Source: Eledone cirrhosa (Eukaryota). Taken from it: a stretch of DNA of 64,000 nt. Below, piece by piece: positions 15,063-48,943 of the stretch. The translations under genes were made by a program, and so were the position numbers. Location of the stretch: assembly GCA_964016885.1 (NCBI GenBank), contig OZ024742.1, forward strand, positions 302,188,001-302,252,000. The letters run 5' to 3'. The notes beneath the pieces are model-generated. The model was not told the origin of the DNA. It saw nothing but the letters and a program-made list of their open reading frames with translations, and ran no database searches. How positions within the stretch are numbered: the first letter of the stretch is position 1; every line of letters begins with the position of its first letter.

Positions 15063-15095
<33 letters not shown>

Positions 15096-15296
15096 GATAG
15101 AGTAAGACACGCTTCGCATCGGCTCCGCTATTCCATCGGGATTTACCCTTGCTATTGTAAGTACCGGATAAATTTTTTAGTGCAACACATTTGGAACACT
15201 AACCCCTGTTATTTAGGGAAACATTTTTGCATTTACCCCCTTTTTAGGGGGTAAAATAAATATCTATTTTTGCCGAAAAATTTCTTTCTTGGCAGC

Positions 15297-17132
15297 ATGG
15301 CGGAAAAGATGGCAGACATGTCTGCCATTAGCTCTGCCACGCCCCCCAAGTCTGAAGAACAAAAAATAATTACAACAAAATTAGACATTGAAACAAACAA
15401 ACAAAATGAAAAAACAAATGTTAAGGAAAATGAGCAAACAGAAAACAAACAAACAGAAAATAATACAAATAACGACAGGGCAACTTTCGCCCAGAAAACA
15501 AAGCAATCCATTACATACACACCAATTGACCTAACTGCCGCCAGAGAAAAACTGGCCGAAGCAAAGAAACATATTGTTTTGGGGGAAAACGGAATGTTTT
15601 CCATTAACTCCCCCCCAGAATTCAAGAAAGCCAGAGCAGAAAACACAGTTATATACAGAACTATACTAAACCAGTCAAGAAAGCCAGCACAGCCCAGCCA
15701 AATGGAAATAGAGTTAGTCCTAAAAGACTATATGAAGAATATTCTCTTCATACGAAAGGACCGACTCTATGGCAGCATTTCGGTCCTAACAAGAGACAAA
15801 GAAACGGCGGTTCAGCTTTCCCTAAGCCCACTCTCGTCGACAACATATAGCTTCTATCCCTCCTACATGGGTAGAAGAACTCAGAGAATAAAAGTAAAAA
15901 CAATGCTGCCCACAATGGACTTCTGGTGGGCTATTGCTGGCTTCATTGATATGGGCGAAGACACTATGCTGTCAATGGGGAAGGCAACTGGAGATGCGTT
16001 CCTGGGAATGGGCCTCGACATACTAGTCCAAATGAGGCCCGAAAGAATAGCACAAATCCCGGATCGCATCTGGCTGGATGACCTTACCCCAATAGACATA
16101 ATTGTAGAGGGGAGAAGACCAGCATGCTATTTATGCATGGAAAGGGGACACGTTAAGGCTAACTGCCCGAAACGTATCCCCCAAAAAGGACTATTGCCCA
16201 CACCCACCACAAACAGTACACCAGCACCACCCACCTCCAAAAATACACTAATACCACACACAGCAAACAAAATACAGACACCACCAACCACAAACACAAC
16301 ACAAACATCACCACCACCAGCACCAAACACAAGCACGACACAAAAATCACCACCACCAACCACAACACAAACATCACCACCACCATTACCAACCACAAGC
16401 ACGACACAAACATTACCACCACCACCACCACAAAACCCATTCCAAACAAATAATAAAAAAAACAGTAACAAATCTACCCCTCCCGCAAAAAAAAAACAAC
16501 CACACAACACGTCCCTCCCACCTAGCGCTGAAGAGTTTCCCCCAACTTCTGAAGAAGAAGGAGGAGAAGCCTTCAGACAAGTTAAAAGAAAAAAAAGAAA
16601 ACACACACCCAGCACACCACAAATAACCCACACACAAACACCAACTCCAATCAAAAACACCCCACCCTCAACAAACAAAAATAAATCTGCGCCTCCCCTC
16701 TCCGAAACATTGACAGCATCACAAAAAAAGACGTTGCAATACACATATATAAATAAAGAAAACAAAAAACTGGTTAAATTAATAAACAATAACCCTATGG
16801 TGCAGACCGAAGGGCCAAACTTTATCTCAACAGAGAACTTCACCCATTTAAAAATGATAAAGGTCCCTCTGGACCTTTATCGTTCCTTAAAAGAACAATT
16901 TAGACGGGACGTGAGCCCCCCCTGTTTAAAACCGTTGAATCGCGTCCTCTTGAAAGATTTCCCCATAACCGCCCCTCTCCCTGACACAACTCCAAATACC
17001 CCAACCCCACCACACACGTGTACCCCCACACCACCACAAAACATCCCTCCACCCAACACACCTGATGCCATGGAAATTACGCAACCCGGAGAGGTAAGTG
17101 CTTTTCTTTCTTCACTTTCAACACCAAAATAG
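15297..17132 (+). CDS. E1 ORF1 (gag-like, CCHC zinc knuckle, Pro/Thr-rich linker, basic NLS-like patch)
   Basis: EGRRPACYLCMERGHVKANCP = CX2CX4HX4C; KRKKRKH; open for ~610 aa from the first ATG. Confidence 0.88.
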   Translation: MAEKMADMSAISSATPPKSEEQKIITTKLDIETNKQNEKTNVKENEQTENKQTENNTNNDRATFAQKTKQSITYTPIDLTAAREKLAEAKKHIVLGENGMFSINSPPEFKKARAENTVIYRTILNQSRKPAQPSQMEIELVLKDYMKNILFIRKDRLYGSISVLTRDKETAVQLSLSPLSSTTYSFYPSYMGRRTQRIKVKTMLPTMDFWWAIAGFIDMGEDTMLSMGKATGDAFLGMGLDILVQMRPERIAQIPDRIWLDDLTPIDIIVEGRRPACYLCMERGHVKANCPKRIPQKGLLPTPTTNSTPAPPTSKNTLIPHTANKIQTPPTTNTTQTSPPPAPNTSTTQKSPPPTTTQTSPPPLPTTSTTQTLPPPPPQNPFQTNNKKNSNKSTPPAKKKQPHNTSLPPSAEEFPPTSEEEGGEAFRQVKRKKRKHTPSTPQITHTQTPTPIKNTPPSTNKNKSAPPLSETLTASQKKTLQYTYINKENKKLVKLINNNPMVQTEGPNFISTENFTHLKMIKVPLDLYRSLKEQFRRDVSPPCLKPLNRVLLKDFPITAPLPDTTPNTPTPPHTCTPTPPQNIPPPNTPDAMEITQPGEVSAFLSSLSTPK

Positions 17133-20100
17133 ATCAATTGAGAGTTGGCTGTTTGAACGCGCGTGGCCTGAGCTCAGCTTGGAAGCAAGCAAAGCTTCTA
17201 AGTGACCTCAGGTCACAAAGTATAGATGTGATGGTTGTTTGCGAGAGTCGGATCAGCAGCGTGAGACAGCTGGCGCCCGCCTTCGATGACTTTGAGATGC
17301 ACGCATCTCTCTGTCAACCCGGAGGCGGGGGGGGGAGTTGCCGTACTGCTGGATAAACGTCTGACTCTCGACGTACAGATTGTTCACTCGGACCCGGGGG
17401 GTCGATTACTGGTGCTGGACGTCGGAGGTGGTGAAGGCGGGGCTTTCAGACTGGTCGGTCTTTATGCTCCCTTCGGGGCGGAGAGAGCCGACTTCTTCCA
17501 ACGTCTGGAGACTTTTCTAGGAACGTCGCGTTCCCTGCTTTTAGTGGGGGACTGGAATGGAATCCTAGATGCGCGTTGGGACTATGCAGGGGCATGTCCC
17601 GATAGAGGGGGGTGTAGCAGCCTCAAGGGGTTACTCGATCGATTCGACCTGGTCGATAGATTTCGACTAGATTGTCCAACTGCGCCAACCTGGACCTGGG
17701 CAAACCGCAGTGGACAATCTAGATCGTACCTAGATAGGTTTTTGGTTAGGAGTAAGGATAGGGACGTATTTAGTTGTCCAGAACTGATCATGGTTGGCTA
17801 TTCAGATCACAAATTAGTGACCTGCGTGGTCAACCTTGATAGAACGCATAGACAGGGTCCCGGTTACTGGAAGATGAACTTGTCCTTACCGACAAAGAAA
17901 GATTACAGAAACCGGATTAGTAGCTTAGTTAAGATGCGGTTGACGGGAGCGATCGTCAACAGCAGGTGGTGGGTATCTCTAAAGAGAGAGATTAGAGTAA
18001 GTTCGATAGGTTACAGTAAGGAACTAGCGGCGAATAGAAATAGGAGGGAAAGGGAGTTAACAGATAAACTAGAAGAGGCGATTAGGAGCGGAGACGTAGC
18101 CAGAGTGTTAGCGACGAGAACGGCATTGAGCCAGTTCTTTGACGCGAAGCACGAAGGCTGCGTTGTCCGAAGTAAAATACGTGCTTTAGGAAACGAGGGG
18201 ACCAAAGCTGTTAGCTGGGCCCGCGTGACAGAAGCCAAGAGTGGGATTAAATCCACCATTCGGTCTTTGCGAGACCAGGATGGACGGGTGATCCTTGAAC
18301 CTGAGCGAATGTGCGAGACCTTTCAAAGGCACTTTGCTCGACTGTTCGGAGGTGGCGGGGGGCCGGACGGGGATGTGGACTTCGGTCCATACCTCGACGG
18401 TCTACCGCGTCTTTCGAGCGGCGAAGCGGAGTGCTGCGAAGGGCCAATCACAGCCACTGAAATCGGGGAAGCGCTCAGCCAATGCAGCAGACGCAAATCC
18501 CCGGGTCTCGATGGTCTACCATACGAACTTTATTTAGCTATGCCGGTCTTGTTCTCCGAACTCCTCGAGGCTGTCTATTGCAACTGGCAACAGAACGGGA
18601 GAATTCCCTGTTCTGTGACCAAGGGCGTGGTCACGCTAGTGAGGAAGGACGAGAGCAAGGGGGACGACTTAAGTAACTTTAGGCCCATAACTCTGCTGAA
18701 TGCAGAGTTACAGATTTTGGCCAAGGTGTTGACGAAGAGGTTGGCGCTTGTGGTGGGTGGTTTGGTGGGAGACGCGCAGACATGCGCTATCCCGTCCAGG
18801 TCCATTCACGACAACCTCCACCTCATGCGATACATCATAGAGAGGGTTGGCTACGAACCCGGCTTTGGTGGGGCCCTGATCAACTTGGATCAATCTAAGG
18901 CGTTCGATAGGGTCGACCATGGTTACCTGGATGCGGTGCTAGCGGCGGCGGGCTTCGGACCCGTTTTCAGGGGCTGGATTTCTGCCATGCACAGTGGCAA
19001 CATCTACTCTAGGATTAAAGTAAACGGCTACCTCTCGGAGCCGTTTCAAATCACCCGATCCATCAGACAGGGGTGCCCCCTCTCCTCCCTTCTGTACGTA
19101 TTGACTCTCGAGCCACTGCTGCGGAAGTTGGAGTTGCTGCGGGGCATACCCCTGGAACCGGGATTGCACAAAGCGGTCTCGGCCTATGCCGACGACGTAA
19201 CAGTAATGGTGGCGGACGCCTCGGAAATCGGGGCGATCGCCACCCTACTGGAGGAATACGAAAGGCTGACGGGGGCTAAGCTGAACCAGGACAAGTCGGT
19301 CGGTTTGCAACTCGGAACGTGGAGGGGCAAACCGATGCCGTTGGACGGTGTCGTCGGGCGGTGGACGGAGGGCCCGGTGAAGCTGCTCGGGGTCTGGTTC
19401 GGACCGGACCTCCAGGTGGAGAAGAATTGGGGCGAGGTGACGAGCAGGGTGTTTGCGCTGACCCAGAAGTGGGCCAAGTGCAAACTATCACTGAAAGGTC
19501 GGGCGGAGGTGACGAACGCTTACATAGCGTCCGTCATCTACTACCGCCTGACCGTCGTGCCTTGCCCCAAGGAAAAGCTCACCATCATGGAACGCATGCT
19601 CTTCCAGTTCCTCTGGAAGAAGCGGCCTCCCATGGTGAGGAGATCCATCTGCTGCCAGCACCCTTCGAAAGGAGGGCTGGGTATGCCGTGGCTGTTGATG
19701 CGTAGGCACGCATTGAGGCTACGGCATCTACAGGTATTCCTCAACGGTCAGCCGGTGTGGGCCCCGTTTGTGAGGCGAGCCTTCCCACAGCTCGTCTCGC
19801 TCACCGAACTGCAATCCTGGGTGAAGCAAAGACCGAGAAAACTGGGCAACTGGCACACTGAGTGTGCCCAGGCGCTCACGGCTATCTGGCAAGCGGACCC
19901 GACTGTCAGTGGAGAATCCACCTCGACATTCTATAGAGGGTTGGTGGCTAGCAGGGGCGACGACACCCTTGGAGAGTCGCTAGGCATGGAGGAGGACGAA
20001 CTGGCCAGCCTGTTCGGTAGAACTTTCGGCCCGGGACCCATGGACAACTTCCAGAGGTCCCTAGCCTGGCAGTGTTACCGGGGGGCTCTGCCCGTTCGAG

Positions 20101-20567
20101 AAAAGCTCTACAGACACGGGCGCCCGGGCAGGGATCCCGCGAAAAAGATCTGTCCCAGATGCGTGCGCGACGAGGAAACCGTTGCGCATGCACTGGTACA
20201 CTGCCCGGGCGTTGCCGATCTGTGGGGCTACGTCGAACGACTGCTGTCGCGTGTGGCGCCGATTCGATTAACCGCCGAGTCTGTGGTGAACATCAAGCCG
20301 CCTCCTCCCTTCAGAAATGAAGCAGAGGCGGTCTTTCTGTGCGTAATAGCCATGATGAAAGAGGTTGTGTGGTGGACGCGCCTGAAAGGTCTGAGGTCGG
20401 GTGACTTTCTCTCCGGCCATCACCTGGTTTACTTCTTCCGATACCACTTCGGAAGAAGAATCAGGATGGAGAGAGAAGTGCTTGGTCCCAGACAGTTTTA
20501 TGAAAGGTGGGTGAAAGAAGCGAGAATGGCCCGTGTAAATGGGCCTTCTCTCTACATTGTTCTGTAG
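17129..20567 (+). CDS. E1 ORF2: APE endonuclease + reverse transcriptase + C-terminal zinc finger (start ATG appears as ATA; one frameshift in the G-run near 17330)
   Basis: VGCLNARGL, LLVGDWN, SYLDRF, YSDH (APE); SPGLDGL, FRPITLLN, LDQSKAFDRV, RQGCPLS, YADD (RT); CPRC..ETVAHALVHC. Confidence 0.93.
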
Positions 20568-20798
20568 GTGAAGAAGTGAAGAGGAAAGGGGGAGCGCCTC
20601 CTCTCTGGGCTTCCCCCGCGAAAAGAGTTGCACACTTTTCGGGGGTATGTGCAATCCCCAACACGCCCCCTCCCTTTTGAGGACTTTTTATTGTTATATT
20701 ATTATTGTTATTCCTTTTTTCTTTACTCGATTTATGTAAACTCCCCCACTGTGTAAATGTCCCCTTCTTTTGTGCCCTCGTGGCAAATAAATAGAAAT

Positions 20799-20858
<60 letters not shown>

Positions 20859-23800
20859 TAATCTAGCTGTCGTCTGTTCTACAGTGTGGATGTCATTCAC
20901 TTCGCACAGAAGTTTTGTTCAAATTTATTGAGGAAATTTTGTGAGTTCAAACTTAATTTTGATACAATTGTGTAGCTTGACCCTCCGTCTGAACTGTCAG
21001 GCGGTGGGTCAGCTCATCTTTACCCCTCCTAGAGGTGAAAAACCTGTTTTAAAAAATTTTGTGTAAAAAATTTCAATCGTCTAACAGAAATGTTAAACGC
21101 AGCGAACGAAAATAGTGGTGGGGGGACAGCGGTAAGAGTTGTAAGCTCGCACGCTTTAGTCCCCCCTTCCTTCCCAACTAACGTCATAGAGAAGGAAGGA
21201 AAAATTAAAATAAAAACAGACGAATCTGCGGAGAAAAAAAAAAAATGACGAAAACACAAATCTGGACTTGGATTCCAACAACGAAAAAAAAAAAATTTGA
21301 AAAATTGCATGACAATACTAATAACACAAACAAAGACACAACAAACACAAAAATAACATTTGAAAATAACACCATATCAGAAAACAAAGCAGACGACAAG
21401 ATTTCATTTGCACAGAAAACAAAGAAATCTTTGACTTATATAGCGGAAAACATTTCAGATGTGGTACGAAGGATCACGGACGCCAAACAATACATAAGTG
21501 AAGGAGAGAATGGTATTTTATCGGTAAAAATGCCTCAAGAATTCACGAAAGACATTGAAAGCCGAACGGTCAAGTTTCTGACCATCAACAACAGTACAAA
21601 AAAACCTGAACAGCCTTCTCAAGCAGATATCAAAACAGTACTCACAGAAGTACTTAATGAAACCACTTTCATAAGAAAAGACAGACTGTATGGAAGCCTA
21701 GCAATTATCATGAAGAACGAATCGGCGGCAAAAAAATGTGCTTTGTCACCGATTCGTTCGAAAAATTTCACCTTTTATCCATCTTATATGGGGAAAAGAA
21801 CTCAACGCATATGGCTGGATGCAATGATGCCAGATGTGGACTACTGCTGGCTCATAGCTGGCTTCATCGATCCAGTGAATGACAACGTGATTTCCATTGG
21901 GAAAACCACAGGCAATGCGTTCAGTGGAACAGGTATAGAGCTGGTAGTACAAATGAAGCCTGAACGCATCGCCCAAATACCCGACAGAATCCTATTAGAG
22001 GACCACGGGTATATAAACATTAGCGTGGAGGGGAGAAGGCCGTCCTGCCACATCTGTGCAGGCAGAGGGCACCTGAAGGCCGCTTGTCCCCAACTCAACA
22101 AAAAGAAAACCCTGCTACCAACACCAGCTCCACCACCACCACCACCACAACAGATAAACAAACAACAAAACTCAGTCCCACCCAACCCGTCCCTCAGTAA
22201 AACCACAACACCACCACAACACAAACAGTCACAACACATTACCCCAAAACAAAATACAGGCCCACCCAACCTCTCACTCAATAAAACAACACAACCACCG
22301 CAGACACAACACACAACACAGTCTAACATAGTGACATCCATCTCCCCCACAAAGAAAACCAACACGGAAACATTACCAGCAAACATACCTCTTCCCTCCA
22401 ACACTGAAGATAACCCAACGAATTCGGAGGAAGAAACGGAGTCCTTCAGACAGATTAAAAGGAAAAAAAGAAAACATGTGCAAAACACACAAGGACAAAC
22501 GACCCCCACCCAAATCTCAACACAATCCAACAAAACAGAAAACACCCCTCCAGCAACAAACAAAACCAAACCTGCCCCTCCCCTCTTCGAAACACTCACA
22601 CCATCGGAAAAAAAGACATTACACTATACTTACATCAACAGAAACAATAATAAATTAAATGAGCTCATATACAATAATCCTTCGGTACAAACCGAAGGTG
22701 TAAACTTTGTTTCGTCAGAAAACTACCCACATTTAAAACTAATAAAGATCCCAATGAACCTCTACCAAAAACTAAAAAAGGATTTTAAGGAGGACGTAGG
22801 ACCACCCTCTGTCAAACCCATAAACCGCGTCCTACTAAAAACCTTTCCCCCTCCCCTTCCCCTCCCCAACACAACTCCAAACACCCCAACCCCACCACAC
22901 ACTGACAACCCCACACCACCACAAGACACCCCTTCACCCAACACCCCCGACCCCATGGAAGTAGTGCAACCCGAACCCCGGGAAGCGGAAAGGTAGGTCT
23001 CTACACTCTCCTTTGGCTCTGCCGCCCACATGGATGTGTTAAGAGTAGGATGTTTGAATGCACGTGGCCTGGGCTCAACTTGGAAGCAAGCAAAACTTCT
23101 AAATGACCTCAGGTCATGTAGTATAAATGTAATGGTTATCTGTGAGACTCGAATCAGCGTCGTGCGGCAGCTGGCCCCCACCTTCGATGACTTTGAGGTG
23201 CATGCATCTCTCTGTCAACCTGGAGGTGGGGGTGGGGTTGTCGTACTGCTGCAAAAACACCTGGGTCTTGCCGTACAGGTTGTGCACTCGGACCCGGAGG
23301 GTCGTTTGTTGGTGCTAGACGTTGGCAGTAGTGAAAGTGCGGCCTTGAGACTGGTCGCCGTCTACTCCCCTTTCGGAGCTGAACGGCCCGACTTCTTCCA
23401 GCGTTTGGAGACTTTTCTGGGAACGTCGCGTTCCCTGCTTCTAGCGGGGGATTGGAATGACATCCTGGATGCACGTTGGGACTATGCAGGAGCATGTCCT
23501 CATAGAGGGGGTGTAACAGCCTGAAGGGGTTACTCGACCGTTTTAACTTGGTCGATAGATATCGACTAGATTTTCCAACTGTGCCTACCTGGACTTGGAG
23601 AAACCACAGTGGTCAATCTAGATCGTACTTAGATAGATTCTTAGTTAGAAGTAAGGATAGGGACATATTAAGCTGTCCAGAAATGCGCACGGTTGGCTAC
23701 ACGGATCACAAATTAGTGACCTGCGTGGTCAATCTCGAGAAAACACATAGACAGGGTCCCGGTTACTGGAAACTTAATTTGTCTTTACCGGCAAAAGAGA

Positions 23801-26680
23801 CTTACAGAAACCGGATTAGCAGATTAGTTAAGGAGAGGTTGACGGGTGCAATCGTCAACAACCGATGGTGGGCATCTCTCAAAAGAGAGATTAGAACAGA
23901 ATCAATAAGTTATAGCAAGATGTTAGCTGCCGATAGGAATAGAAACGAGAAAGAATTAACAGGTAAATTAGAAGAGGCAATCAAGAGCGAAGATGTGGCC
24001 AGAGTTCTGGCATCGAGGACGGCCTTGAACCAGTTTTTCGATGCAAAGCACGAAGGCTGCGTCATTCGAAGTAAAATACGTGCTCTAGGTAATGAGGGGG
24101 CCAAATCCGTTGGATGGGCCCGCGTGACAGAAGCTAAGAGTGGAAATCGATCCACCATCCGGTCGTTGCAAGACGAAGATGGACGGGTGATCCGGGAGCC
24201 TAAGCAGATGTGCGAGGCCTTTCAAAGGCACTTTGCCCGATTGTTCGGGGGAGGCGAGGGTCCGGGCGGGGGCGTGGATTTCGGTCCATACCTCGACGGC
24301 CTGCCGCGTCTCTCGAACGAAGAGGCAGAGTCCTGCGAGGGACCAATCTCGGCTGATGAGATCGGAGATGCGCTGAGCCAATGCAGCAGACGCAAATCTC
24401 CAGGTCTCGATGGTATACCTTACGAACTTTATTTAGCAATGCCGGTCTTCTTCTCCGAACTCCTCGAAGCGGTCTACTGCAATTGGCAGCAGAACGGGAG
24501 AATTCCTTGTTCTGTAGCCAAGGGCGTAGTCACGCTGGTGAGGAAGGACGAGAACAAGGGGGATAATATAAATAATTTTCGGCCCAAAACCCTGCTAAAC
24601 ACAGAGTTAAAGATTTTGGCCAAGGTCTTAGCAAAGAGGTTGGCGCTTGTCGTGGGTGGCCTGGTGGGAGATGCGCAGACATGTGCTATCCCATCCAGGT
24701 CCATTCACGATAACCTCCACCTCATGCGATACATCATAGAGAGGGTTGGCAACAAACCCGGCTTCGGTGGGGCCCTGATCAACTTGGATCAGTCTAAGGC
24801 CTTCGATAGGGTCGACCATGGTTACCTGGATGCGGTGCTAGCGGCGGCTGGGTTCGGTCCTGTTTTCAGAGGCTGGATCACTGTCCTACATGGCAACCAC
24901 ATCTGTTCTAGGATCAAGGTGAACGGCTACCTTTCGAAGCCGTTCGAAATCACACGATCCATTCGACAGGGGTGCCCTCTCTCCTCCCTTCTGTACGTAT
25001 TGACTCTCGAGCCTTTACTGAGGAAGTTGGAGTTGTTGCAGGGTATCCCCCTGGAACCAGGATTGAGCAAAGCGGTGTCGGCCTACGCCGATGACGTAAC
25101 AGTAATGGTATCAACCGACTCGGAGATCGAGGCGATCGGTACCTTACTGGAGGAGTACGAAAGGTTGTCAGGAGCGAAACTGAACCGGGAAAAATCCATC
25201 GGGCTGCAACTCGGAACGTGGAGAGGCAGACCGATGCATCCTGACGGTGTCGTCGGACACTGGACGGAGGGCCCGGTAAAGTTGCTTGGGGTCTGGTTTG
25301 GACCGGACCTCCAGGTGGAAAAGAACTGGAACGAGGTTACGAACAAGGTGTTTGCACTAACCCAGAAATGGGCCAAATGTAAGCTGTCCCTAAAAGGCCG
25401 GGCGGAGGTGGCGAACATTTACATAGCGTCCGTCACTTACTACCGCCTGACTGTCGTGCCTTGCCCTAAGGAAACACTCACCACCATGGAACGCATGCTC
25501 TTCCAATTTCTTTGGAAGAAGCGTCCTCCTATGGTGAGAAGATCCATCTGCTGCCAACAACCTTCGAAAGGAGGGCTGGGGATGCCGTGGTTGATGATGC
25601 GTAGGCACGCATTAAGGCTACGGCACCTACAGGTATTCCTCACTGGTCAACCGGTGTGGGCTCCGTTCGTGAAACGAGCCTTTCCGAGACTCGTCTCGCT
25701 CACCGAGCTACAGTCCTGGGTCAAGCAAAGATCCGGAAAACTGGGAGACTGGCACACTGAGTGTGCTCAGGCGCTCAGGGCTCTCTGACAAGCGGGCCAG
25801 GCCATCGGTGGAGAATTCACCTCATCATTCTATAGAGGGCTGGTGGCTAGCAGGGGCGATGACACCCTTGGAGAGTCGCTGGACATGGAAGAAGACGAAC
25901 TGGCCAGCCTGTTCGGTAGAACTTTCGGCCCAGGACCAATGGACAACTTCCAGAAGTCACTGGCCTGGCAGTGCTACCGGGGGGCTCTACCCGTTCGAGA
26001 GAGGCTCTACAGACACGGGCGCACGGGCAGGGATCCCTCAAAAAAGATTTGCCCTAGATGCGTGCGTCACGAAGAAACCGTTGCGCACGCATTGGTGCAA
26101 TGTCCGGGCGTGGCTGATCTGTGGGGCTACGCCGAACGACTGCTGTCGCGGGTGGCGCCGATTCAATTGACCGCCGAGTCCGTGATGACAATCAAACCGC
26201 CTCCCCTCTTCACAAAGGAAGCAAAGGCGGTTTTTCTGTGCGTAATAGCCATGTTGAAAGAGGTTGTTTGGTGGACACGATTGAAAGGTCTGAGGTCAGG
26301 CAACTTCCTCTCTGGCCATAGTCTGGTCTACTTCTTCCGATATCACTTCGGAAGAAGGATAAGAATGGAGAGAGAGGTGCTTGGCCACAGGCAGTTTTAT
26401 GAAAGGTGGGTGATAGTGGCGAGAATGGCTCGTGTAAATGGGCCTTCTCTGTATACCATCCTGTAGGTAAAGAAGTAAAGGAGAGGGGAGCACCTTCTCC
26501 ATGTGCTCCCCGGGCAAAGGATTGCACACTTTTTCGGGGGTGTGTGCAACCCCCATCACGTCCCCTCCCTTTTGAGGTTATTTTCGATTATTTTCATGTT
26601 ACACCCTTTTTACTCGATTATATGTAAACTCCCCCTTTGTATTTGTCCCTTCTTTTTATGCCTTTATGGTAAATAAAGAA
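20859..26680 (+). mobile_element. E2: full-length copy; ORF1 ~21090-22996, ORF2 23030-26466 (frameshift ~23510, TGG>TGA at 25786)
   Basis: Same motifs. ORF1 start MLNAANENSGGG matches E3 MNAASNDNGGG; ORF1 breaks fall in poly-A runs. Confidence 0.92.
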
Positions 26681-26716
26681 ATCTATCTATCTATCTATCT
26701 ATCTATCTCTCTATCA

Positions 26717-30772: not shown

Positions 30773-30850
<78 letters not shown>

Positions 30851-36316: not shown

Positions 36317-36364
<48 letters not shown>

Positions 36365-37159
36365 GTTCGGTAGGACCTTCCGCCCGGGACCGATGGACAA
36401 CTTCCAAAAGTCCCTGGCCTGGCAGTGCTACCGAGGAGCTCTACCAGTTCGAGACAAGCTCTACAGACATGGGCGCCCGGGCAGGGACCCTGCAAAAAAG
36501 ATCTGTCCGAGGTGCGTGCGAGACGAAGAAACCGTCGCGCACGCATTCATACACTGCCCGGGCGTCACTGACCTGTGGGGCTATGTAGAACGACTATTGT
36601 CGCGGGTGGGACCAATCCAGTTGACCACCGAGTCCATTGTCATGATCAAACCGCCACCCTCCTTCAAAAACGAAGGAGAGGCGGTTTTCCTTTGTGTGAT
36701 AGCTATGGCGAAAGAGGTTGTATGGTGGACAAGGTTGAAAGGGCTGAGGTCAGACACCTTTCTCTCCGGTCAACAACTGATTCTTTTTTTCAAATACCAC
36801 TTTGGAAGAAGAATCAGGATGGAGAGAGAGGTGCTGTACCCCAGCAAGTTTTATGAAAGGTGGGTGAAAGTGGCGAGAATGGCCCGAGTGAATGGGCCTT
36901 CTCTCTATATCAGCCTGTAGGTTGAGGAAAAGGAGGAGGAGAGGAAAGGAGTACAAGCTCTTCGTACTCCTGGAGATGAGGGTTGCACATTTTTTTCGGG
37001 GGTCTGTGTTACCCATATAAACTGTCTCCCTCTATTGGGGAAAATCGACTAACTTTTAAATTCCATCTGTGATAACATTTTACACGTTTTTATTGTATGT
37101 AAACTTCCCCCTTTGTATTTGTCCCCTTCTTTTGTGCCCCTGTGGCTAATAAAGAAATA
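36365..37159 (+). mobile_element. E5: heavily 5'-truncated copy (ORF2 zinc-finger end + 3'UTR)
   Basis: Starts directly after (TATC)n at LFGRTFRPGPMDNF; stop at 36920; AATAAA at 37148. Confidence 0.92.
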
Positions 37160-37182
37160 TATCTATCTATCTATCTATCTAT

Positions 37183-40100
37183 AATCACCGCAACCACCAC
37201 TACAAAAACAACAACCACAGCTCAAACCAAAACAAAACACTGTCCAACCCATCCCCCCCACTAAAAAAAAAAAACAATTTCCAAAACACCCGCACCGCAA
37301 ACACAACCCTAAAATCTACCCCCTCCTCTCCAACACGGAAGATGACCCTCGTTCGTCGTCAACGAGGAGGAGCACTTCAACACAATCAAAAGAAAAAAAA
37401 GAAAACACACCTCAGACACACAAATGAAAACAACCCCTCCCCAAAACATAACATAGACACCAACACAAAAGAGCACACAACAACAGCAAACAAAAAACAC
37501 CACACAAAAACAAAAACATGCATACACATACATAAATACAAGAAATAAAAAAACTGCTAAACATTGTATACAACAACAATTTAGTGAAAACCCAAGGGCC
37601 TAACTTCACCCAGACAGGAGATTTCCCCCACCTCAAAATGATTAAGGCCCCAGAGGACACATATAAAACGCTAAAAAAAAACTTTAAAGAGGACGTGCCC
37701 CCCCCCCCTCCTGCGTCGGGCCCATTAACCGCGTCCTCCTAAAAAAATTAACCTCCCCCTCCCCAAACACACATACAACTCCAAACCACCCCAACCACAA
37801 AACACACTGATGCCCCTACACTTCCACAAACCACCACCCCACCCAACAACCCATCCCCCACCCTCATGGAAATTGTGCAGCCCGATACCCGGGACGCAGA
37901 GAGGTAAGTGCCTTTTCTCTTCACCACCAACATGGCTATGCTGAGAGTAGGTTGTCTAAATGGGGGTGGCCTGGGCTCAACTTGGAAGCAAGTAATGCTT
38001 CTAAACGACCTCAGGTCACAACGTATAGATGTGATGGTTATTTGCGAGGCCCGGATCAGCTACGTGCGACAGCTGGCCCTCACCTTTGATGACTTTGAGA
38101 TGCACGCATTGCTTTGTCAGCCCGGTGGTGGGGGTGGGGTTGTCGTTCTGCTGCAAAAACATCTGGGTCTCGCAACACAGACGGTACATTTGGACCCGGA
38201 GGGTCGACTAGTGGTACTGGACCTTGGCAGTGGTGAAGGCGGAGCGTTTAAGCTGGTAGCCGTCTACGGCCCTTTCGGGTCAACGCGGCCGGACTTCTTC
38301 CATCGCCTGGAGACTTTTCTAGGGACGTCCCGCTCCTTGCTATTAGTGGGGGACTGGAATGGTATCCTAGATGCACGTTGGGACTACGTAGGGGCCTGTC
38401 CTGATAGAGTGGGGTGTAACAGCCTCAAAGGGTTAATCGGCTGATTTGACCTGGCCGATAGATATCGACTAGATTTTCCGACAGCGCCAACCTGGACCTG
38501 GGCAAACCGCAGCGGATCATCTAGGTCGTACCTAGATAGGTTCTTAGTTAGAAATAAGGATAAGGACTTTTTAAGTTGTCCAGAAATGCTCATGGTTGGC
38601 TATTCAGACCACAAGATAGTGACCTGCATGGTCAACCTTGACAGAACGCATAGACAGGGAGCCGGTTACTGGAAGCTCAACTTGTCCTTACCGGCAAGTA
38701 GAGCTTACAGGGACCGGATTAGCACTTTAGTTAAGGAGCGGTTGACGGACGCCATCGTCAACAGCAGGTGGTGGGGATCTCTCAAAAGAGAGATTAGAGT
38801 AGTCTCTATAGAATTTAGTAAGGAGTTAGCCTCAAATAGAAATAGGAAGGAAAGGGAGTTGGTAGATAGTGTAGAAGAAGCAATTAGAAGCGGCGACGTG
38901 GCCAGAGTGCTAGCGTCGAGAACGGCCCTGGGCCAGTTCTTCGACGCGAAACACGAAGGCTGCATCGTCCGAAGCAAAACACGTGCTCTGGGAAACGAGG
39001 GGACCAAAGCTGTTAGCTGGGCCCGCGTGACAGAAGCCAAAAGAGGGAGTAGATCCATTATCCGGTCTTTGCGAGACCAGGATGGACGGGTGATCCTTGA
39101 ACCTAAGCAGATGTGCGAAGCTTTTCAAAAGCACTTGGCCAGATTGTTCGGAAGGGGCGGGGAGCCGGTTGGGGAAGTGGACTTCGGTCCATACCTCGAC
39201 GGCCTGCCGCGTCTCTCGGACAAGGAGGCGAAGTCCTGCGAGGAGCCGATTTCAGCCGCTGAGATAGAGAACGTGCTGAGCCAATGCGGCAAACGCAAAT
39301 CCCCGGGTCTCGATGGTCTTCCATACGAACTATATCTAGCTATGCCGGACTTGTTCCCCGATCTCCTCGAGGCGGTCTACTGCAACTGACGACAGAACGG
39401 GAGAATTCCCTGTGCTGTGACGAAGGGCGAAGTCACGTTAGTGAGGAAGGACGAGAACAAGGAGGACGATATAAGTAATTTCAGACCCATAACTCTGCTA
39501 AATACAGAGTTACAGATTTTGGCCAAGGTGCTAGCAAAGAGGTTGGCGCTTGTCGTGGGAAACCCGGTGGGAGATGCACAGACATGTGCTATCCCGTCCA
39601 GGTCCATCCACGACAACCTCCACCTCATGCGATACATCATAGAGAGGATTGGGAACGAACCCCGGCTTTGGTGGGGCCCTGATAAACTTGAATCAATCTA
39701 AGGCATTCGATAGGATCGACCATGGTTACCTGGATGCAGTGCTAGCGGCGGCAGGCTTCGGACCCGTTTTCAGGGGCTGGATCACTGCCATGCACAGCAG
39801 CCGCATCTATCTACTCTAGAGTCCATCCGACAAGGGTGCCCTCTCCCCTCCCTTCTGTATTTGATGACTCTAGAGCCACTGCTGCGGAAGTTGGAGTTGT
39901 TGCAGGGCTTCCCGTTGGAACCGGGATTGCGGAAAGCGGTGTCGGCCTACGCCGATGACGTAACAGTAATGGTGTCGACGGCCTCGGAAATCGGGGCGAT
40001 CGGCACCTTACTGGAGGAGTACGAAAGGTTTACAGGGGCTAAGCTGAACCGGGACAAGTCGATCGGTTTGCAACTCGGCACGACGAGGAGCAAATCGATG

Positions 40101-41364
40101 CCATCCGATGGCGTCGTCGGGCGCTGGACGGAGGGCCCGGTGAAGTTGCTCGGGGTCTGGTTCGGACCAGACCTCCAGGTGGAGAAGAACTGGGGTGAGG
40201 TGACGAACAGGGTGTTTCCACTGACCCAGAAGTGGGCCGAGTGCAAACTGTCCCTGAAAGGCCGGGCGGAGGTGGCGAACACTTATATAGCGTCCGTCAT
40301 CTACTACCGCCTGACCGTCGTGCCTTGCCCAAGGCAAACGCTCGCCAAAATGGAGCGCGCACTCTTCTAATTCCTTTGGAAGAAGCGGGCTCCTATGGTG
40401 AGGAGACCCATCTGCTGTCAACACCCTTTGAAAGGAGGGCTGGGGATGCCGTGGCTGATGATGCGTAAACACGCATTAAGGCTACGACGCCTTCGGAGAA
40501 GCCCTAGGCATGGAGGAAATCGAACTGGCCAACCTATTCAGTAGGACATTCAGCCCGGGACCTATGGATAACTTCCAGAGGTCCCTGGCCTGGCAGTGCT
40601 ACCGAGGAGCTCTGCCCGTTCGAGAAAGGCTCTACAGACACGGGCGCCCGGGTAGGGACCCCTCGAAAAAGATCTGTCTCAGATGCGTGTGCGACGAGGA
40701 AACCGTTGCACACGCATTGGTACACTGCTCGGGCATTGCCGATCTGTGGGGCTATGTCGAACGATTGCTGTCGCGGGTGGGCCCGATCCGGTTGACCACC
40801 GAGTCTATTGTAACGATCAAGCCGCCTCCCCTCTTCAAAAACGAAGGAGAGGCGGTGTTTCTGTGCGTAATAGCCATGGTAAAAGAGGTTGTATGGTGGA
40901 CGCGTCTGAAAGGACTGAGCTGAGGTCAGACACCTTTCTCTCTGGCCAACACTGGTCCGTTTCTACCGATATCATTTCGGAAGAAGAATCAGGATGGAGA
41001 GAGAGGTGCAGCACTCCAGCCGTTTTTATGAAAGATGGGTGAAAGTGGCGAGAATGGCCCGTGTGAATGGGCCTTCACTCTACATCAGATCGTAGGTGAG
41101 GAAGATGAAAGATCAAGGGAGCACCCTCTCTCTGTGCTCCTGAGGAGAAGGGTTGCACACTTTTTTCGGGGGTGTGTGCGACCCCCCAAGGCGCCTCCTC
41201 CCTATTGAGGATTTTGTTATTCAATTTATTTTTCTTATATTTTATATTTTTATATTTTTATATTTTGTTATTGCCTCCTCCTTATTGAGGACGCCTTTTT
41301 ATGTAAACTCCCCCCATTGTACTTGTCCCACTCTTTGATGCCCTGGTGGCAAATAAAAAGAAAT

Positions 41365-41365
<1 letters not shown>
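37183..41365 (+). mobile_element. E6: 5'-truncated, decayed copy (ORF1 3' half to 37907; ORF2 37932-41095)
   Basis: Stops, frameshifts, and deletions near 39810 and 40490 relative to E1. Confidence 0.9.
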
Positions 41366-41406
<41 letters not shown>

Positions 41407-44400
41407 GGATGGACACACGTGTGAAATTTGCTGGGTAAGTTCTGCTTACATTTCTATAGAAGTTCTTGACTGTGAGCCTTCATTTTTATACCAATTTATA
41501 GAGGGACTGCCAGGTCAAATTTTGATCTGGTCAGTCTCCCAAAATATTCTACGCCGTTAGGCGAAATAGTCCATGAAAAAGATTTGGGAAAAACTAACGT
41601 TTTAAAAAAATGGCTGAAGCGATAACAGCTTCTTCACCAACATTCGAAGGAGGAAACGGGAAGATATGCTTACAGCTTCCTCCTTCCACCGTCATAGTAG
41701 CAGATGTCTCAGACAAGGGTCAGAGAGAGGAAGGATTTTCTTCACCTGCTGACCGATAACTTGACGTTGCCATGGCAACAAACCAAAACCAAAAGTGTGG
41801 AATAATGAACAAAAACAACACAACCGGCACCACCACCAACAACAACAACAATGCTATGAACGAAAACAACACCAACAACAACGAAGACAACAACAATAAC
41901 AAGAACAACAAAAACAACTCCAGCGCAAGCGAAAACAACCACACACAAAAAAAAACAAAACAAAAAAAAACGTCTGCAGAAAGCCTTGCCAAAGAGACAG
42001 AATTTATAGAAATAGATCTGTCAAACCAAGCGCAGCGCCTAAAGGACGCTGCACAACATATAACTTTCGAAGGTAACGGCTTTCGAATAAGTACCCCACC
42101 GGAAATTAGGGCCGCGACCTTAAGAAAAACAATTTTCTTCCGGACTAACTGCTCACAAACCTAGAAACCCATGACTCTAAGCAATAGCACCGTGGAAACC
42201 GCACTAAAGGAAGCAATGCCAGACATTGCTTACCTCCAGAGGGTCAAGCAGTACGGGAGCATCTCGGTGCTCTTTAAAAGCGAGGTTTTCGCCCAGAAAT
42301 ATTTGGTGGCTCCAATTAGAACGAGCCAACACATCTTCTTCCAACATACATGGGAAGAAGAACCCATAAAATAAGGATCTCCCAGATCCCACCGAACACC
42401 AACATTTGCTGGATCCTGGGTGGTTTTTTGGAGGAGGGTGAAGACAACCTCCTCTCTGTAAAAAAATCAATCCACCACACATTTAAAAGCATTTTGACCA
42501 ATGCTGGATGTGGAAAAACAAAAGAAGGCGTTGTTGCCAACCCCAAAACTACAACAGACACACCCGAAAACAAAAAAACACAACCCCCAAACCACCAACA
42601 TTCACCCAAACATCACAAACCACAAAAGACACCACACCAAAAATTCCTCTGAAGGACTCTGTCCTACCTCTTTCCCCTCTGTCCAACACTCCCACAAACA
42701 CACACACAGACACTCTACCACCACACAACATACCCCTCCCACCTACCCACAATGATAACACCTCAGACACGGGCACCTCTACATCTCCAAGTGAGGATGA
42801 AGAGGAACTCAAAAAATCCAAGAAGCAAAAAAGACACAGAAAAAATACAAAAACAAAAACATCAACAGAAAACACGCACACACCCAACACTGACATAAAC
42901 ATACCGCCACAAACGAAAACCACACCAACAACACAATCAGACACTTCACCAACAAAACAAATACCCACACCACCACAATCACAAACCCTAACCACCAAAA
43001 GAAAACTACAAACAGAAACAGTACACATAAAAAACAAAACACATTACACATACATAAAAACACGAAACAAAGAACTGGTGGAAACTGTCCGAAAGGATCC
43101 CACTATCCAAACGGAAGGGAAAAACCTTCCCCATCAACGACCCACCTCCAAACCATAAACTAATCAGGGTAACAACCCTACAGTATGAAACTTTAAAAGG
43201 GAACTTCCCACATGATGTGCCCCCCCCCCTGCCAAAAACCCCTTAACTGTGTCCTGCTAAAAGGATTCCCTACCTCCCAAAACACCCCCCAATCTGGACA
43301 TGGAGATCGAACAACCCGACCTCCAGGAAACGAAAAGGTAAGTGTTCTTGCCTTTTCTCTCCCTAACATGGCGACTATACAAGTTGGATGTTTGAATGTA
43401 CGTGGCCTGGGCATGCCCTGGAAACAGGGCCAGGTTTTAAATGATCTCAGGTCACACTGTATTGATGTGATAGCCATCACCGAGTCCAGGATTCACGACA
43501 AGCAGCAGCTAACCCCCATGTTCAATGATTTTGTGATCTATGCATCTCTCTGTCAGCCAGGAGGTGGAGGAGAGTTGCTTTTTCTGTTTCGAAAAAACTT
43601 GGATCTCAAAGTACAGACGATTCACTTGGATCCGGAGGGCAGCCTGGTAGTCCTTGACGTGAATGGTAGTGAAGGTGGAGCTTTCAGACTGGTGGTCGTA
43701 TATGCCCCGATTGAGACATCGCGACCAGAGTTCTTCAAGCGTCTGGAGCCATTCCTGGGAACGTCTCGCTCCTTAGTGTTAGCGGAGGACTGGAATGGCA
43801 TCTTTGACGCACGTTGGGACTATGTAGGAGCTTGTGATAATAGAGGGGGTTGTAAGAGCCTAAAAAATCTCATCAGCCAATTCCAACTGGCTGATAGATA
43901 TCGACTAGACTTCCGAAGTGCACCACTGTGGACGTGAAGCAACCGCACTGCGTTTTCTAGATCGTATTTAGATAGATTTTTAATTAGACAGAATGATAAG
44001 GAAACATTAAGCTGTCCACAAATGCACGTGGTTGCCAATTCAGACCAGAAATTAGTCACCTGCATAGTCAAACTTGATAGAACACACAGACAGGTACCCG
44101 GATACTGGAAGCTAAACATGTCGCTCCCGGCGCGTAAGGCCTACAGTAAACGGATTAGCACCTTATTTAAGAGCCAGTTAACGGGGACCATCGTCAACAA
44201 CAGGTGGTGGAGCTCTGTCAAGAGAGCAATTAAAATAGAATCGATAGCATATAGCAAGGAAGTAGCTTTAGAAAAAAACAAAACTGAAATGGAACTGGTA
44301 GCTAAAGTAGAAGAGGCACTTAGGAATGGCAGTACAGCTGACGTGCTAGCAGCGAGAACGGCACTAGACCAGTTCTTCAACGTGAAACACGAAGGTTCTA

Positions 44401-47099
44401 GTGTTAGAAGTAGAACATGTGCTCTAAGAAACGAGGCAACCAAAGCTGTTAGCTGAACCCGAGTGGCAGAGGCGAAAAGTGGCAACAAATCCACAATTTG
44501 GTCTTTGCAAGACAAAGATGGACGCATTCTATTTGAATCCAAGCAGATGTGCACGGCCTTCCAGCAGCACTTTGCATAACTGTTCGGGCAAAGCGGTACG
44601 TCGAGCGAGGTGATGGACTTCAGTTCCTACCTCGACGGTCTACCACGACGGCCTACCACGACTCTCGAGCACGGATGCAGAGAGCTGCAAAAGGCCGATC
44701 ACAGCAGGCGAAATAGAAGATGCCCTAGGCCGCTGTGGGAAACGCAACTCACCCGGTCTAGATGGTCTACCCTATGAGTTTTACATAGGCTTGCCAGACT
44801 TGTTCTCTGGCGTCCTCGAAGCGGTATACTGCAACTGGCAGCAGAACGGGAGGATTCCCAGTTCTGTAGGCAGAGGCGTAGTAACGCTGATCAGGAAAGA
44901 TGAGAACAAGGGGGATGAGATAAGCAATTTCAGGCCCATAACTCTGCTCAACACAGAGTTAAAGATTTTGGCCAAGGTGTTAGCAACGAGGCTGGCGCTT
45001 GTCGTCGAGAACCTGGTAGGGGAAGCGCAAACGTGTGCAATCCCGACCAGGTCCATACACGACAACCTCCACCTCATGCGATACATCATAGAGAGGGTAC
45101 GATGTAAACCTGGCTTCGGTGGGGCTCTGATCAATTTAGATCAGTCTAAGGCATTTCATAGGGTCGGCCATCAATACTTGGAAGCGGTTCTCAAGGCGGC
45201 AGGCTTCGGTCCCGTGTTCAGAGGCTGGATCGCTGCCATACATACGAGCATCTGCTCGGCAGTCAAGGTGAATGGCTACCTATCGGAGCCATTCTAAATC
45301 ATGCGTTCCATCCGCCAGGGATGCCCTCTCTCTTCCATTCTGTATGTACCGACTCTCGAGCTATTACTGCGGAAGCTGGAGCTGTTGCAGGGCATCCCGA
45401 TCGAACCATACTGCGGAAAGCAGCCTCGGTCTATGCCGACGATGTAACAGTGATGGTGTTGAAAACCTCGGAAATCGGGGTAATCGGCAACCTATTACAG
45501 GAATACGAAACGTTGCCAGGAGCAAGACTAAACCCAAACAAGTCTGTCGGTTTGCAACTCGGCACATGGAGAGGCAAACCCATGCCTTCCGACAGTGGCG
45601 TTGGACGCTGGACGGAAGGACCGGTGAAATTGCTCGGGGTCTGGTTTGGCCCAGACCTCCAGGTGGACAAGAACTGGAACGAGATCATGGCGAAGGTGTT
45701 TGCACTCACCCAGAAGTGGGCAGAGTGCAAACTCTCCTTGAAAGGTCGAGCGGAGGTGGCGAACACTTACATAGAGTCCGTCATCTACTACCGTTTGACA
45801 GTCGTGCCTTACCCCACGAACACCTCACCAAAATGGAACGCCTACTCTTCAAGTTCCTCTGGAAGAAACAGGCTCCGTTGGTGAGGAGATCCATCTGCTG
45901 TTAACACACTTCTAACGGAGGGCTGGGTATGCCGTGGCTGATGATGCGCAAACACGTGCTGAGGCTACGCCATCTCCAGGTATTCCTGACCGGCGAACCG
46001 GTGTGGCTGTAGTTTATGAGACGAGCTCTTCCACAACTCGTCTAACTAACAGAGCTGCAGTCCTGTGTCAAGCGAAGACCGAAAATGGGCGCCTGGCTCC
46101 CCGAGTGCCTTCAGGCGCTCACAGCCCTATACCAAGCGGAAACGGCAATCAGCGGAGACTCCACTTCGACATTCTATAGGGGATTAGTGGAGGATAAGTG
46201 CGACGACGTTATCGGGGAAACTCTAGGCATCGAGGAGGACGAACTGACCAGTCTGTTAGGGAGGACTTTCCGTCCAGGGCATATGGATAATTTCCAGAGG
46301 TCACTGGCCTGGCAGTGCAACTGAGAAGCTCTACCAGTTCGAGACAAAATCTACAGGCACGGACGCCCTGGCAGAGATCCTGCCAAAAGGACCTGTCCAA
46401 GATGCGAGCAGGCAATTGTTCAGTGCCCAGGGGTGACCGACCTGTGGAATTATGTCGAACAGCTACTGTTACGTGTGGGACGCATCCAGTTGTCAGCCAA
46501 GTCCATCATGAGGATCACCCCGCCGCCTTCATTTAAGAATGAAGGAGAGGCGGTTTTCCTCTGTCTGGTGGCTCTGGCGAAAGAGGTAATATTGTGGACG
46601 AGGTTAAAAGGACTGAGGGCAAACACCTTTCTCTCCGGACAACAACTTATCCCCTTCTTTAAGTACCACTTCAGAAGGAAGGTGAAAGTGAAGAGAGAGG
46701 TGCTACACCCCAGTAAATTCGCTGAAAGGTGGGTGAATGTGGCGAAAATAGCCCGAGTGAATGGGCCTTCTCTGTATATAAACCTGTAGGTTGAGGAAGA
46801 TAAACAGAGGGAAGACAGGAACACCTACAAAACGTGTTCCTAGTGTTGAGGGGTGTTCTATCCACGGGGTGTAAAACAACCCTGCAATAACGTTCCCCCC
46901 TCCTTATTTGGGATTTCAATTGTTATTTTATTATATATAGTTTATTGTTATTTATTAATTGTTTCTACGTTAGGCACAAGGCCAGCAATTACCCAGTGCT
47001 TATTTATTAATGTTAAAGTTATATGATTTTTATGTAAAACCCCCGCCGTCACGTCTTGTAATGTCCATTTTTGTACGCCCGTGACAAATAAAGAAAGAT
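41407..47099 (+). mobile_element. E7: full-length, most decayed copy (ORF1 ~41610-43341; ORF2 43368-46789)
   Basis: All domains recognisable, with many stops and frameshifts; the ORF1 knuckle region is deleted. Confidence 0.9.
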
Positions 47100-47249
47100 A
47101 TCTATCTATCTATCTTTCCCCTTCTCCTACTCTGTCTCTCCCCCCCTTACTCTCTCAAACACACACATTTTCTCTTTCTCCATCTTTAACCCTCCCCTCT
47201 CTACCCCCACTCTCTCAATCCATCTTTATGTCTATCTATTCTTATCACT

Positions 47250-48230
47250 GGCACCTGGTGCCTGGCACCTCGAGTGCCTACAGGCGCTCACAGCCCTCTA
47301 CCCAGCGGAAACAGCAATCAGCGGAAACTCTACTTCGACATTCTATAGGGGATTAGTGGAGGATAAGTGCGACGACGTTCTCGGAGAAACTCTAGGCATC
47401 GAGGAGGACGAACTGACCAGTCTGTTCGGGAGGACTTTCCGTCCAGGGCCTATGGATAACTTCCAGAGGTCTCTGGCCTGGCAGTGCTACCGAGGAGCTC
47501 TACCAGTTCGATATAAAATCTACATACACGGACGCCCTGGCAGAGATCCTGGCAAAAGGACCTGTCCAAGATGCGAGCAGGACATCGAAACCGTTCTGCA
47601 CGCAATTGTTCAGTGCCCAGGGGTAACCGACCTATGGAACTATGTCGAATAGCTGCTGTCATGTGTGGGACGCATCTAGTTGTCAGCCGAGTCCACCGTG
47701 AGGATCACCCCGCCGCCTTCATTTAAGAATGAAGGAGAGGCGGTTTTCCTCTGTCTGGTGGCTATGGCGAAAGAGGTAATATGGTGGACGAGGTTAAAAG
47801 GACTGAGGGCAAACACCTTTCTCTCCGGACAACAACTTATCCCCTTCTTTAAGTATCACTTCAGAAGGAAGGTGAGAGTGGAGAGAGAAGTGCTACACCC
47901 CAGTAAATTCGCTGAAAGGTGGGTGAATGTGGCAAAAATGACCCGAGTGAATGGGCCTTCTCTGTATATAAACCTGTAGGTTGAGGAAGATAAACAGAGG
48001 AAAGACGGGAACACCTACAAAACGTGTTCCTGGTGTTGAGGGTTGTTCTATCCACGGGGTGTAAAACAACCCCGCAGTAACGTTCCCCCCTACTGGGGAT
48101 TTCAATTGTTATTTTATTATATATAGTTTATTGTTATTTATTAATGTTAAAGTTATTTTTATGTAAAACCCCCGCCGTCACGTCTTGTAATGTCCCATTT
48201 TTGTACGCCCCTGTGGCAAATAAAGAAAGA
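47250..48230 (+). mobile_element. E8: 5'-truncated copy of the E7 subfamily with a 17-bp TSD
   Basis: Flanks tatctattcttatcact (47233-47249) and tatatattcttatcact (48231-48247). Confidence 0.9.
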
Positions 48231-48943
48231 TATATATTCTTATCACTATATTTCTATCTTTTTCACTCTCTCTATCCCATTTGCTTTCCCCCTTACAACG
48301 AGCTTTGCTCCCCTCCACCTGCTATCTCCTTTGCCCACCAAGTCATTCAATACAAAAATGCTACGAATTAAATATGAAGAAGAGAATAATAAAAATAAAA
48401 TAAATCAACCAAAATAAAACATAACACTCACTACACCCCCCCCCCCCGCCCCCCACCCCCTCCTCAAAACAGAACATCTCCACCTTGCTCCATAACAACA
48501 GAATAAGATAAAACAACAAGAACAACAATAACACCATTTCGAAGAGAGAGCAAAGACAAAATTGTGGCGTCATCGAGGGAATCTTTCTGGATGGTTCCAA
48601 TACCATTAATAACACAAAGAAATAGCGACGAGGAAACGGGAGTTGTTTGGATTAAGCAATCTACCAGCTATTAAGTTCGCTACAGTTTGTTGTATGGCCT
48701 CGTGAAAATATAACAAATAAACTATTTGCCAAGTGATTAAGAGGAGATACATAAGCAGAGAAGTCTGGACAAGAAAAATCTCAAGGAACGATACACAATT
48801 GCTATGGCTTCTTTCTGTCAAATATCATGAGGGCAATTCACGACAGCTTAGACATCACGTAACATCACAACAGCTTTGTTTCGTTCGTTGACTGTTTATT
48901 TCTATGGCGTGTATTGGCTTGATTCATACATGAAATTATGCGC

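Follow-up and report, generated by a model that had tools for sequence, protein, structure and literature searches.

Trains of APE-type retrotransposons, probably of the Tx1 clade, at TATC microsatellites in Eledone cirrhosa

The stretch considered here (the window) is 64 kb of DNA of the octopod Eledone cirrhosa, positions 302188001-302252000 of contig OZ024742.1 in a 3.0-Gb genome (assembly GCA_964016885.1, to which the genome-wide searches refer). It holds eight homologous long interspersed nuclear elements encoding an apurinic/apyrimidinic-type endonuclease (APE) and a reverse transcriptase (RT), all on the + strand and arranged head to tail (15063-48247); they are numbered E1 to E8 from left to right, and several are joined by (TATC)n tracts. 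A preference of this family for TATC as insertion site is well supported and very probable, and the orientation of insertion relative to TATC is fixed. The window locus is not special; it is one of very many such trains.

For the E1 subfamily, the 40 best of 2,831 candidates were taken, all 100% identical over the 3' 500 bp. TATC comes next after the 3' end in 40/40 of these, and it is also present at the 5' junction of 35/35 full-length copies and 1/1 truncated copy (among the 40 upstream regions, three with internal breaks and one that was cut were left unscored). A second sample consisted of 147 copies of the E2, E4, E5, E6 and E8 subfamilies, the window's own left out; the 5' junction lay within the locus in 91 and not in 56. 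Here the 3' end passes directly into TATCT or TCTAT in 144/147 copies. Among truncated copies, a perfect TATC 8-mer lies within ~25 nt of the 5' junction in 70/91 cases and a 6-mer in 77/91, with background rates of 0.16%/0.07% for the 8-mer and 2.2%/1.4% for the 6-mer; a GATA 8-mer was found at 0/91. These 91 junctions include three pairs of overlapping tandem copies. The truncated copies preceded by TATC begin at dozens of different internal positions. Kojima took one sequence type in >20% of flanks as the mark of a target preference, a value exceeded here at both the 5' and the 3' side. In a sample of 30 ends taken in order of position, 10 TATC-type copies had a 5' junction, of which six showed the 8-mer, two the 6-mer and two neither (scored by eye). 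The sequence-only reading had treated the TATC as a target rather than a tail, and that claim survived the genome-wide test of 5' flanks, including the duplications described next.

Locus-specific target duplications were found by a strict search in 14/136 copies, against a mean of 4.55 and a maximum of 8 for shuffled flank pairs; the unique strict duplications measure ~11-20 bp. A looser search (25 versus 11.5 shuffled) had picked up element ends, and the strict one supersedes it. In copies L162 and L235 the target's own departure from TATC is repeated in the 3' flank, and L205 behaves likewise with one mismatch, so the 3' TATC is no invariant tail. The pattern shared by 14 sites picked by hand is (T)CT^ATCT(A)T; position +7 is unconstrained, whereas T at -3 and C at -2 are seen in 13/14. 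Judged from these sites, the sequence recognised appears to be short, ~9 bp (about TCTATCTAT), and a long microsatellite would therefore not be required for insertion. The ends of E2 and E4 read AATAAAGAA-ATCT, so that the cut would fall at T^ATCT or one base rightward. In the former case the GATA strand would be nicked at a T^A step, comparable to the TTTT/AA of L1.

The 3'-end motif of the family has 25,783 matches in the genome (13 for a control), and 19,294 raw matches, some counted twice, continue straight into ATCTA. Trains are frequent as well. Among the first 100 consecutive ends on contig C1, 47 belong to clusters of 2-7 ends on one strand; of the neighbours spaced less than 8 kb apart, 33 pairs share a strand and 2 are on opposite strands, with 4.1 expected. 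A family piece lies no more than 150 nt downstream of 64/177 focal copies, in the same orientation in 63/64, and mixed-subfamily trains recur at other loci. The repeat itself, as (TATC)7, has 148,247 overlapping matches in the genome. The first 21 tracts of at least seven units on C1, in order of position, include 14 with a family piece next to them, oriented as expected in 13 cases, and seven with no adjoining element. Because trains and TATC junctions are found genome-wide, the train in the window is a long example of the ordinary behaviour of the family. Tandem pairs of truncated copies with equal length and equal start also occur (L169/L170, L177/L178, L187/L188, L086), so that local duplication yields dimers too.

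In the window the train and its associated features are as follows:
15063..15094, +, left target tract (ATCT)8, without a family element upstream
15095..20799, +, E1, full-length, of the youngest subfamily, 99.98% identical to copy L041
15255-17132, +, E1 open reading frame 1 (ORF1) with CCHC knuckle
20800..20858, +, junction tract (TATC)14
20859..26680, +, E2, full-length, ORF2 broken
26681..26715, +, TATC junction tract with one imperfect unit
26716..30650, +, E3, 5'-complete, a member of the E5 subfamily, 3' part missing past the RT motif
30651..30772, +, rearranged remnant: 48 nt of E4-type RT and a duplicated E4-type 3' end
30773..30850, +, junction tract (ATCT)19
30851..36316, +, E4, 5'-truncated by ~350 nt relative to a full-length relative
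36317..36364, +, junction tract (ATCT)12
36365..37159, +, E5, a 795-nt 5'-truncated 3' piece, 99.9% identical to other copies
37160..37182, +, junction tract (TATC)5
37183..41365, +, E6, 5'-truncated within ORF1 (most of ORF1 gone), with an internal ORF2 deletion
41366..41406, +, junction tract (TATC)10
41407..47098, +, E7, full-length, decayed
47099..47114, +, right tract (TATC)4
47233..47249, +, E8 target duplication, left copy, 17 bp, read from the sequence
47250..48230, +, E8, 5'-truncated, at a minimal TATC-like site
48231..48247, +, E8 target duplication, right copy, one mismatch
17093-17099, 32591-32597, 37903-37909 and 43337-43343, splice-donor-like motif

Outside the eight array tracts there is no run of at least three TATC or GATA units within the 64 kb. 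Homology and Pfam domains confirm the eight APE-RT elements, all on the + strand, that the sequence-only reading had listed. It had also described a first tract without an upstream element, and the only match in the 361 bp upstream is indeed an old dispersed repeat, over the first ~170 bp; an empty paralogue of this left flank was searched for and none was found. The truncated E4, E5 and E6 begin flush on TATC, as had been noted. The statement that every junction is a TATC tract has to be narrowed: tracts do lie between elements, but ~120 bp of pyrimidine-rich DNA separate the 47099-47114 tract from E8, and the 3' junction of E3 has been lost, because E3 ends at ~30650 and is followed by the E4-type pieces of the remnant. 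This remnant was unique in the genome search and is probably the leftover of a ninth element.

The elements had been assigned to several subfamilies with diverged ORF1s and similar ORF2s, and this agrees with the pairwise likeness of ~70-87% over ORF2 and the 3' untranslated region and with ORF1s that can be aligned in patches only. They come from distinct subfamilies, and each is nearer to copies elsewhere than to its neighbours in the array, a structure that fits the earlier claim that they were inserted independently and did not arise by tandem duplication. Compared with their nearest fetched copies, E2 is 99.4% identical (over the 3' 1.8 kb), E3 98%, E4 ~99%, E6 ~96%, E7 ~94% and E8 96%, the relatives of E3 and E7 being less closely sampled than the others. 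None of the eight (0/8) has both ORFs intact. ORF2 of E1 extends to 20567 and has a frameshift near its start that is absent from close genomic copies, and the E4 ORF2 frame (32565-35777) keeps intact APE and RT motifs but meets a stop before the normal end. Apart from the train, the window contains a 310-bp unit in 3.3 copies, 100% identical, at 6544-7576 (a recent tandem duplication or an assembly feature), and a decayed Penelope-like element at 50756-52972 with RT and then GIY-YIG, interrupted by stops.

Sister subfamilies are found on other repeats. For example, 8/30 position-ordered ends come from a subfamily whose ORF2 is 78% identical to that of E4, and the sequence after them invariably begins at one and the same point of a 73-bp satellite; this subfamily (L341-L347; C1 4.22-4.26 Mb, 0.56 Mb and 1.57 Mb) forms a six-copy head-to-tail train in a satellite array. 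Rfam gave no match in its satellite flank, nor in the window. Another 3/30 ends (L348-L350) are followed by (ATT)n. A quick tree nests the satellite subfamily among the TATC subfamilies (SH-like approximate likelihood ratio test, SH-aLRT, 98) and places the ATT copy as sister to all. The junctions of both are also compatible with the T^A phase. The 3' flanks suggest targeting by these subfamilies, which is less well shown than that of TATC.

Recognition of TATC/GATA by the APE endonuclease is probably the cause of the preference, the train having grown through nicks in the GATA strand and duplications that copy the target; from the sequences, it is likely that the endonuclease itself reads the repeat. 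Its nick in the GATA strand would most probably fall within 5'-AGAT^AGA-3', at a T^A step like the one cut by human L1. This phase is favoured because a cut one base to the left is incompatible with the 3' ends of E2 and E4, and because the sister subfamilies fit it. The freed 3'-OH would prime reverse transcription at the 3' end of the element (AATAAA, no poly(A)). A second nick downstream would create the duplication, so that target is kept on both sides for the next element, and slippage may afterwards lengthen the TATC tracts. The more diverged right-hand copies (E6-E8) would have been inserted first, and E1, E2, E4 and E5 later. An earlier picture of the locus as a self-extending landing pad stands in so far as it rests on TATC targeting and target duplications; it falls short in that the locus is not unique and a long microsatellite is unnecessary.

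Several observations weigh against targeting by the endonuclease as just described. Strict duplications were detected in no more than the 14 copies given above, the shuffled control is not zero, and the 14 include three tandem copies (L056, L086, L188). Because ATCT served as the anchor for the manual alignment of the site logo, the invariance of its core is in part built in. The sampled copies are mostly young, because they were chosen as best matches. The TATC 8-mer is missing from 21/91 truncated junctions and even the 6-mer from 14/91; later deletions, mis-called ends or off-target insertions could account for these. In the first 19 Mb of C1, with sister subfamilies included, ATCTA comes next at 58/100 ends (hand count). 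The perfect 5' run has a median of 26 nt in full-length E1 copies versus 11 nt in truncated copies, and given these longer runs the element may bring along, or generate while inserting, some of the 5' repeat. The APE hairpin loop does not explain the shift of target, because the satellite-flanked sister has nearly the same loop.

The same site preference could have another cause, although a rather unlikely one, in a loosely T^A-specific endonuclease combined with pairing between a few UAUC bases at the 3' end of the RNA (encoded, or read through from the source locus) and the nicked GATA strand. The near-identical hairpin loops of sister and TATC subfamilies would fit such pairing, since the elements have different flanks and differ in their last bases. 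It would also suit an element that lacks poly(A) to pair with the primer, the TATCT or TCTAT found directly at nearly every 3' end, and its presence there even where the 5' flank is without TATC (L104, L123, L240). However, in L162, L205 and L235 the 3' flank tracks the deviation of the target within 3-6 nt, so any repeat borne by the RNA would be very short, and the conserved bases to the left of the duplication (T at -3, C at -2) would not be selected by pairing at the 3' end. In addition, the Tx1L endonuclease is sequence-specific by itself in vitro, according to excerpts of PMC1950540.

It is very improbable that TATC is carried by the element at head and tail, with near-random insertion and with elements seeding the microsatellites. 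Long perfect 5' runs in full-length copies are what such seeding would leave, as are the two thirds of long tracts that adjoin an element and the imperfect unit before E3 that recurs in L124 (two copies only). Nevertheless, truncated copies starting at dozens of internal points are still preceded by TATC, the duplicated flanks are locus-specific, same-strand trains need targeting, and a third of the long tracts (7/21) have no element. Tandem duplication, or a false join of near-identical repeats during assembly, is hardly credible as the origin of the train: young copies are 99.9% alike over 5.7 kb and same-length tandem neighbours exist elsewhere, but the window elements show a likeness of 70-87%, are spread over different subclades, have their closest matches elsewhere rather than among their neighbours, and find counterparts in the mixed-subfamily trains of other loci.

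ORF2 of the family has the Pfam domains Exo_endo_phos, RVT_1 and zf-RVT, i.e., an N-terminal APE, an RT and a C-terminal zinc-binding region. It matches human L1 ORF2p (PDB) with E 8e-52, and the catalytic motifs of APE and RT are aligned and kept. A CCHC knuckle in ORF1 is typical of the Tx1 clade. Here it is visible in the sequence as C-x2-C-x4-H-x4-C, with a Pfam zf-CCHC match (E 0.019) below the cut-off; the Atlas neighbours of ORF1 carry zf-CCHC, at 0.92. The element ends in AATAAA and a short A-rich stretch (..GAAA), followed by TATC. The 3' poly(A) tail that is a usual feature of L1 is absent. In the E1 subfamily, intact copies included, ATA occupies the position of the ORF2 ATG of other subfamilies, overlapping the ORF1 stop (17125-17145), which suggests AUG-independent initiation of ORF2.

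Splice-like signals flank ORF2. The end of ORF1 reads AG|GT(A/G)(A/G)GT in seven subfamilies, whichever of the three stop codons is used, and the motif persists in E1 despite its shifted frame; coding constraint on Arg-stop explains part of it. ORF2 ends in TAG followed by G in 7/7 window copies that retain this end (e.g., 20565-20568), and joining the ORF1-end motif to the base after ORF2 would restore the same ORF1 end in E2 and E6. These signals raise the hypothesis that ORF2 may be spliced out like an intron, leaving an mRNA with ORF1 alone. Spliced retrocopies joining ORF1 to the 3' untranslated region were found neither with two probes nor at 34 donor sites, a weak test because such RNAs would rarely be copied.

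The family likely belongs to the Tx1 clade, judged from its sequence relationships, and the earlier candidate assignment gains tentative support from an RT tree. Among named proteins, the closest is one from Argonauta hians (65% in RT). A metagenome scan found APE-RT elements inserted in the U2 small nuclear RNA (snRNA) gene (L364, L370), which fit the description of Keno; the other metagenome matches are distant relatives, with at least three TATC units in 0/14 of those inspected. In the RT tree the family and its unnamed relatives are sister to a clade with the U2-inserted L364/L370 (SH-aLRT 90, long branch). This was a quick tree of a chosen subset of matches, with a midpoint root and no bootstrap, and its rows include no named Tx1L, Keno, Kibi, Koshi or vertebrate L1; the subfamily tree is of the same quick kind. 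Of the features of the L1 group, the APE-RT-zinc ORF2, 5' truncation and target duplication are present, and the poly(A) tail is absent. The U2 3' flank contains TATCT, which suggests descent from a U2-targeting ancestor; this is only a lead, as the register relative to the junction differs from that of the TATC family and no U2 copy was seen (no genome match of element end plus U2 3' half, and no U2 piece beside the 310 loci searched). A tandem U2 snRNA array with a ~2.2-kb period lies at 307.35-307.45 Mb on the window's contig (L311-L340), 5 Mb from the window. Other Tx1-like elements came to light on metagenome contigs, where L373 is followed by a U1 gene and L366 is preceded by a U1-like start (by eye, without an Rfam match). 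In the fish Coilia grayii, near-identical Tx1-like ORF2 proteins (P0162/P0163 cluster) with close locus tags (024466-024484) suggest a tandem array.

Excerpts of several papers (PMC4494074, PMC3812793, PMC4640811, PMC1950540, PMC13282606, PMC10294476, PMC8869645) list TC, TTC, TTCC/TTTC, ACAY, AC, TAA and TG as retrotransposon targets. Targeting of microsatellites by Tx1 elements is already established. No description of a TATC- or GATA-specific retrotransposon was found in the literature searched, a search that lay outside Repbase, Dfam and the supplements of PMC4494074, any of which may hold this target. The family adds TATC/GATA to the targets of APE-type retrotransposons, and does so at unusual scale: there are >25,000 ends, some copies are intact and very young, and most of the sampled long TATC tracts are occupied. 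Subfamilies ~78% alike in ORF2 on different repeats form a natural series for asking what sets APE target choice. The findings also bear on mutual feeding of microsatellite and parasite, on GATA markers in such genomes and on the assembly of these loci. A wider picture can be offered only tentatively: an undescribed octopod Tx1 lineage, possibly from U2-targeting Keno-like ancestors, that was retargeted to TATC, occupies some two thirds of the long tracts in the genome, propagates its target as it inserts, has changed target (TATC, the 73-bp satellite, ATT) in the course of one radiation and perhaps treats ORF2 as an intron.

Among known systems, Kibi, Koshi and the crocodilian Tx1 families are, like the TATC family, APE-RT non-LTR (long terminal repeat) elements preferring a pyrimidine-rich microsatellite. 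The target unit differs, being (TC)n for Kibi, (TTC)n for Koshi and (TTCC)n/(TTTC)n for the crocodilian families in excerpts of PMC4494074 and PMC3812793; the flanks in Eledone are TATC, not (TC)n or (TTC)n, apart from a few old copies (L287, L351) that adjoin (TC)n, a comparison made by description only. Keno is an APE-type member of the Tx1 clade that targets U2 snRNA (excerpts of PMC4494074 and PMC4640811). The Keno-like copies of the sister clade end in an A run and then U2, whereas the TATC family ends in AATAAA..GAAA and TATC. Two ORFs with APE and RT are shared with Tx1L and human L1, and the T^A step is compatible with L1; in the relevant excerpts of PMC1950540, L1 nicks at TTTT/AA and is promiscuous, and the target of Tx1L is a DNA transposon. 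The hairpin loop of the TATC family is shorter than that of human L1. For Octopus vulgaris 13 recently active L1-Tx1 families are reported, with no target preference mentioned in excerpts of PMC13282606; these may include relatives of the TATC family. TRAS/SART, Waldo (ACAY), Mino (AC), Dong (TAA), Utopia and HeT-A/TART are likewise targeted to repeats but belong to other clades or use other endonucleases. HeT-A/TART form unidirectional trains, and the likeness to them drawn by the sequence-only reading holds for architecture only: they extend chromosome ends, whereas the trains of the TATC family are internal and number in the thousands. TRAS/SART are closer analogues, as are the U2 clusters in which Utopia has been reported in tandem and multi-family arrays.

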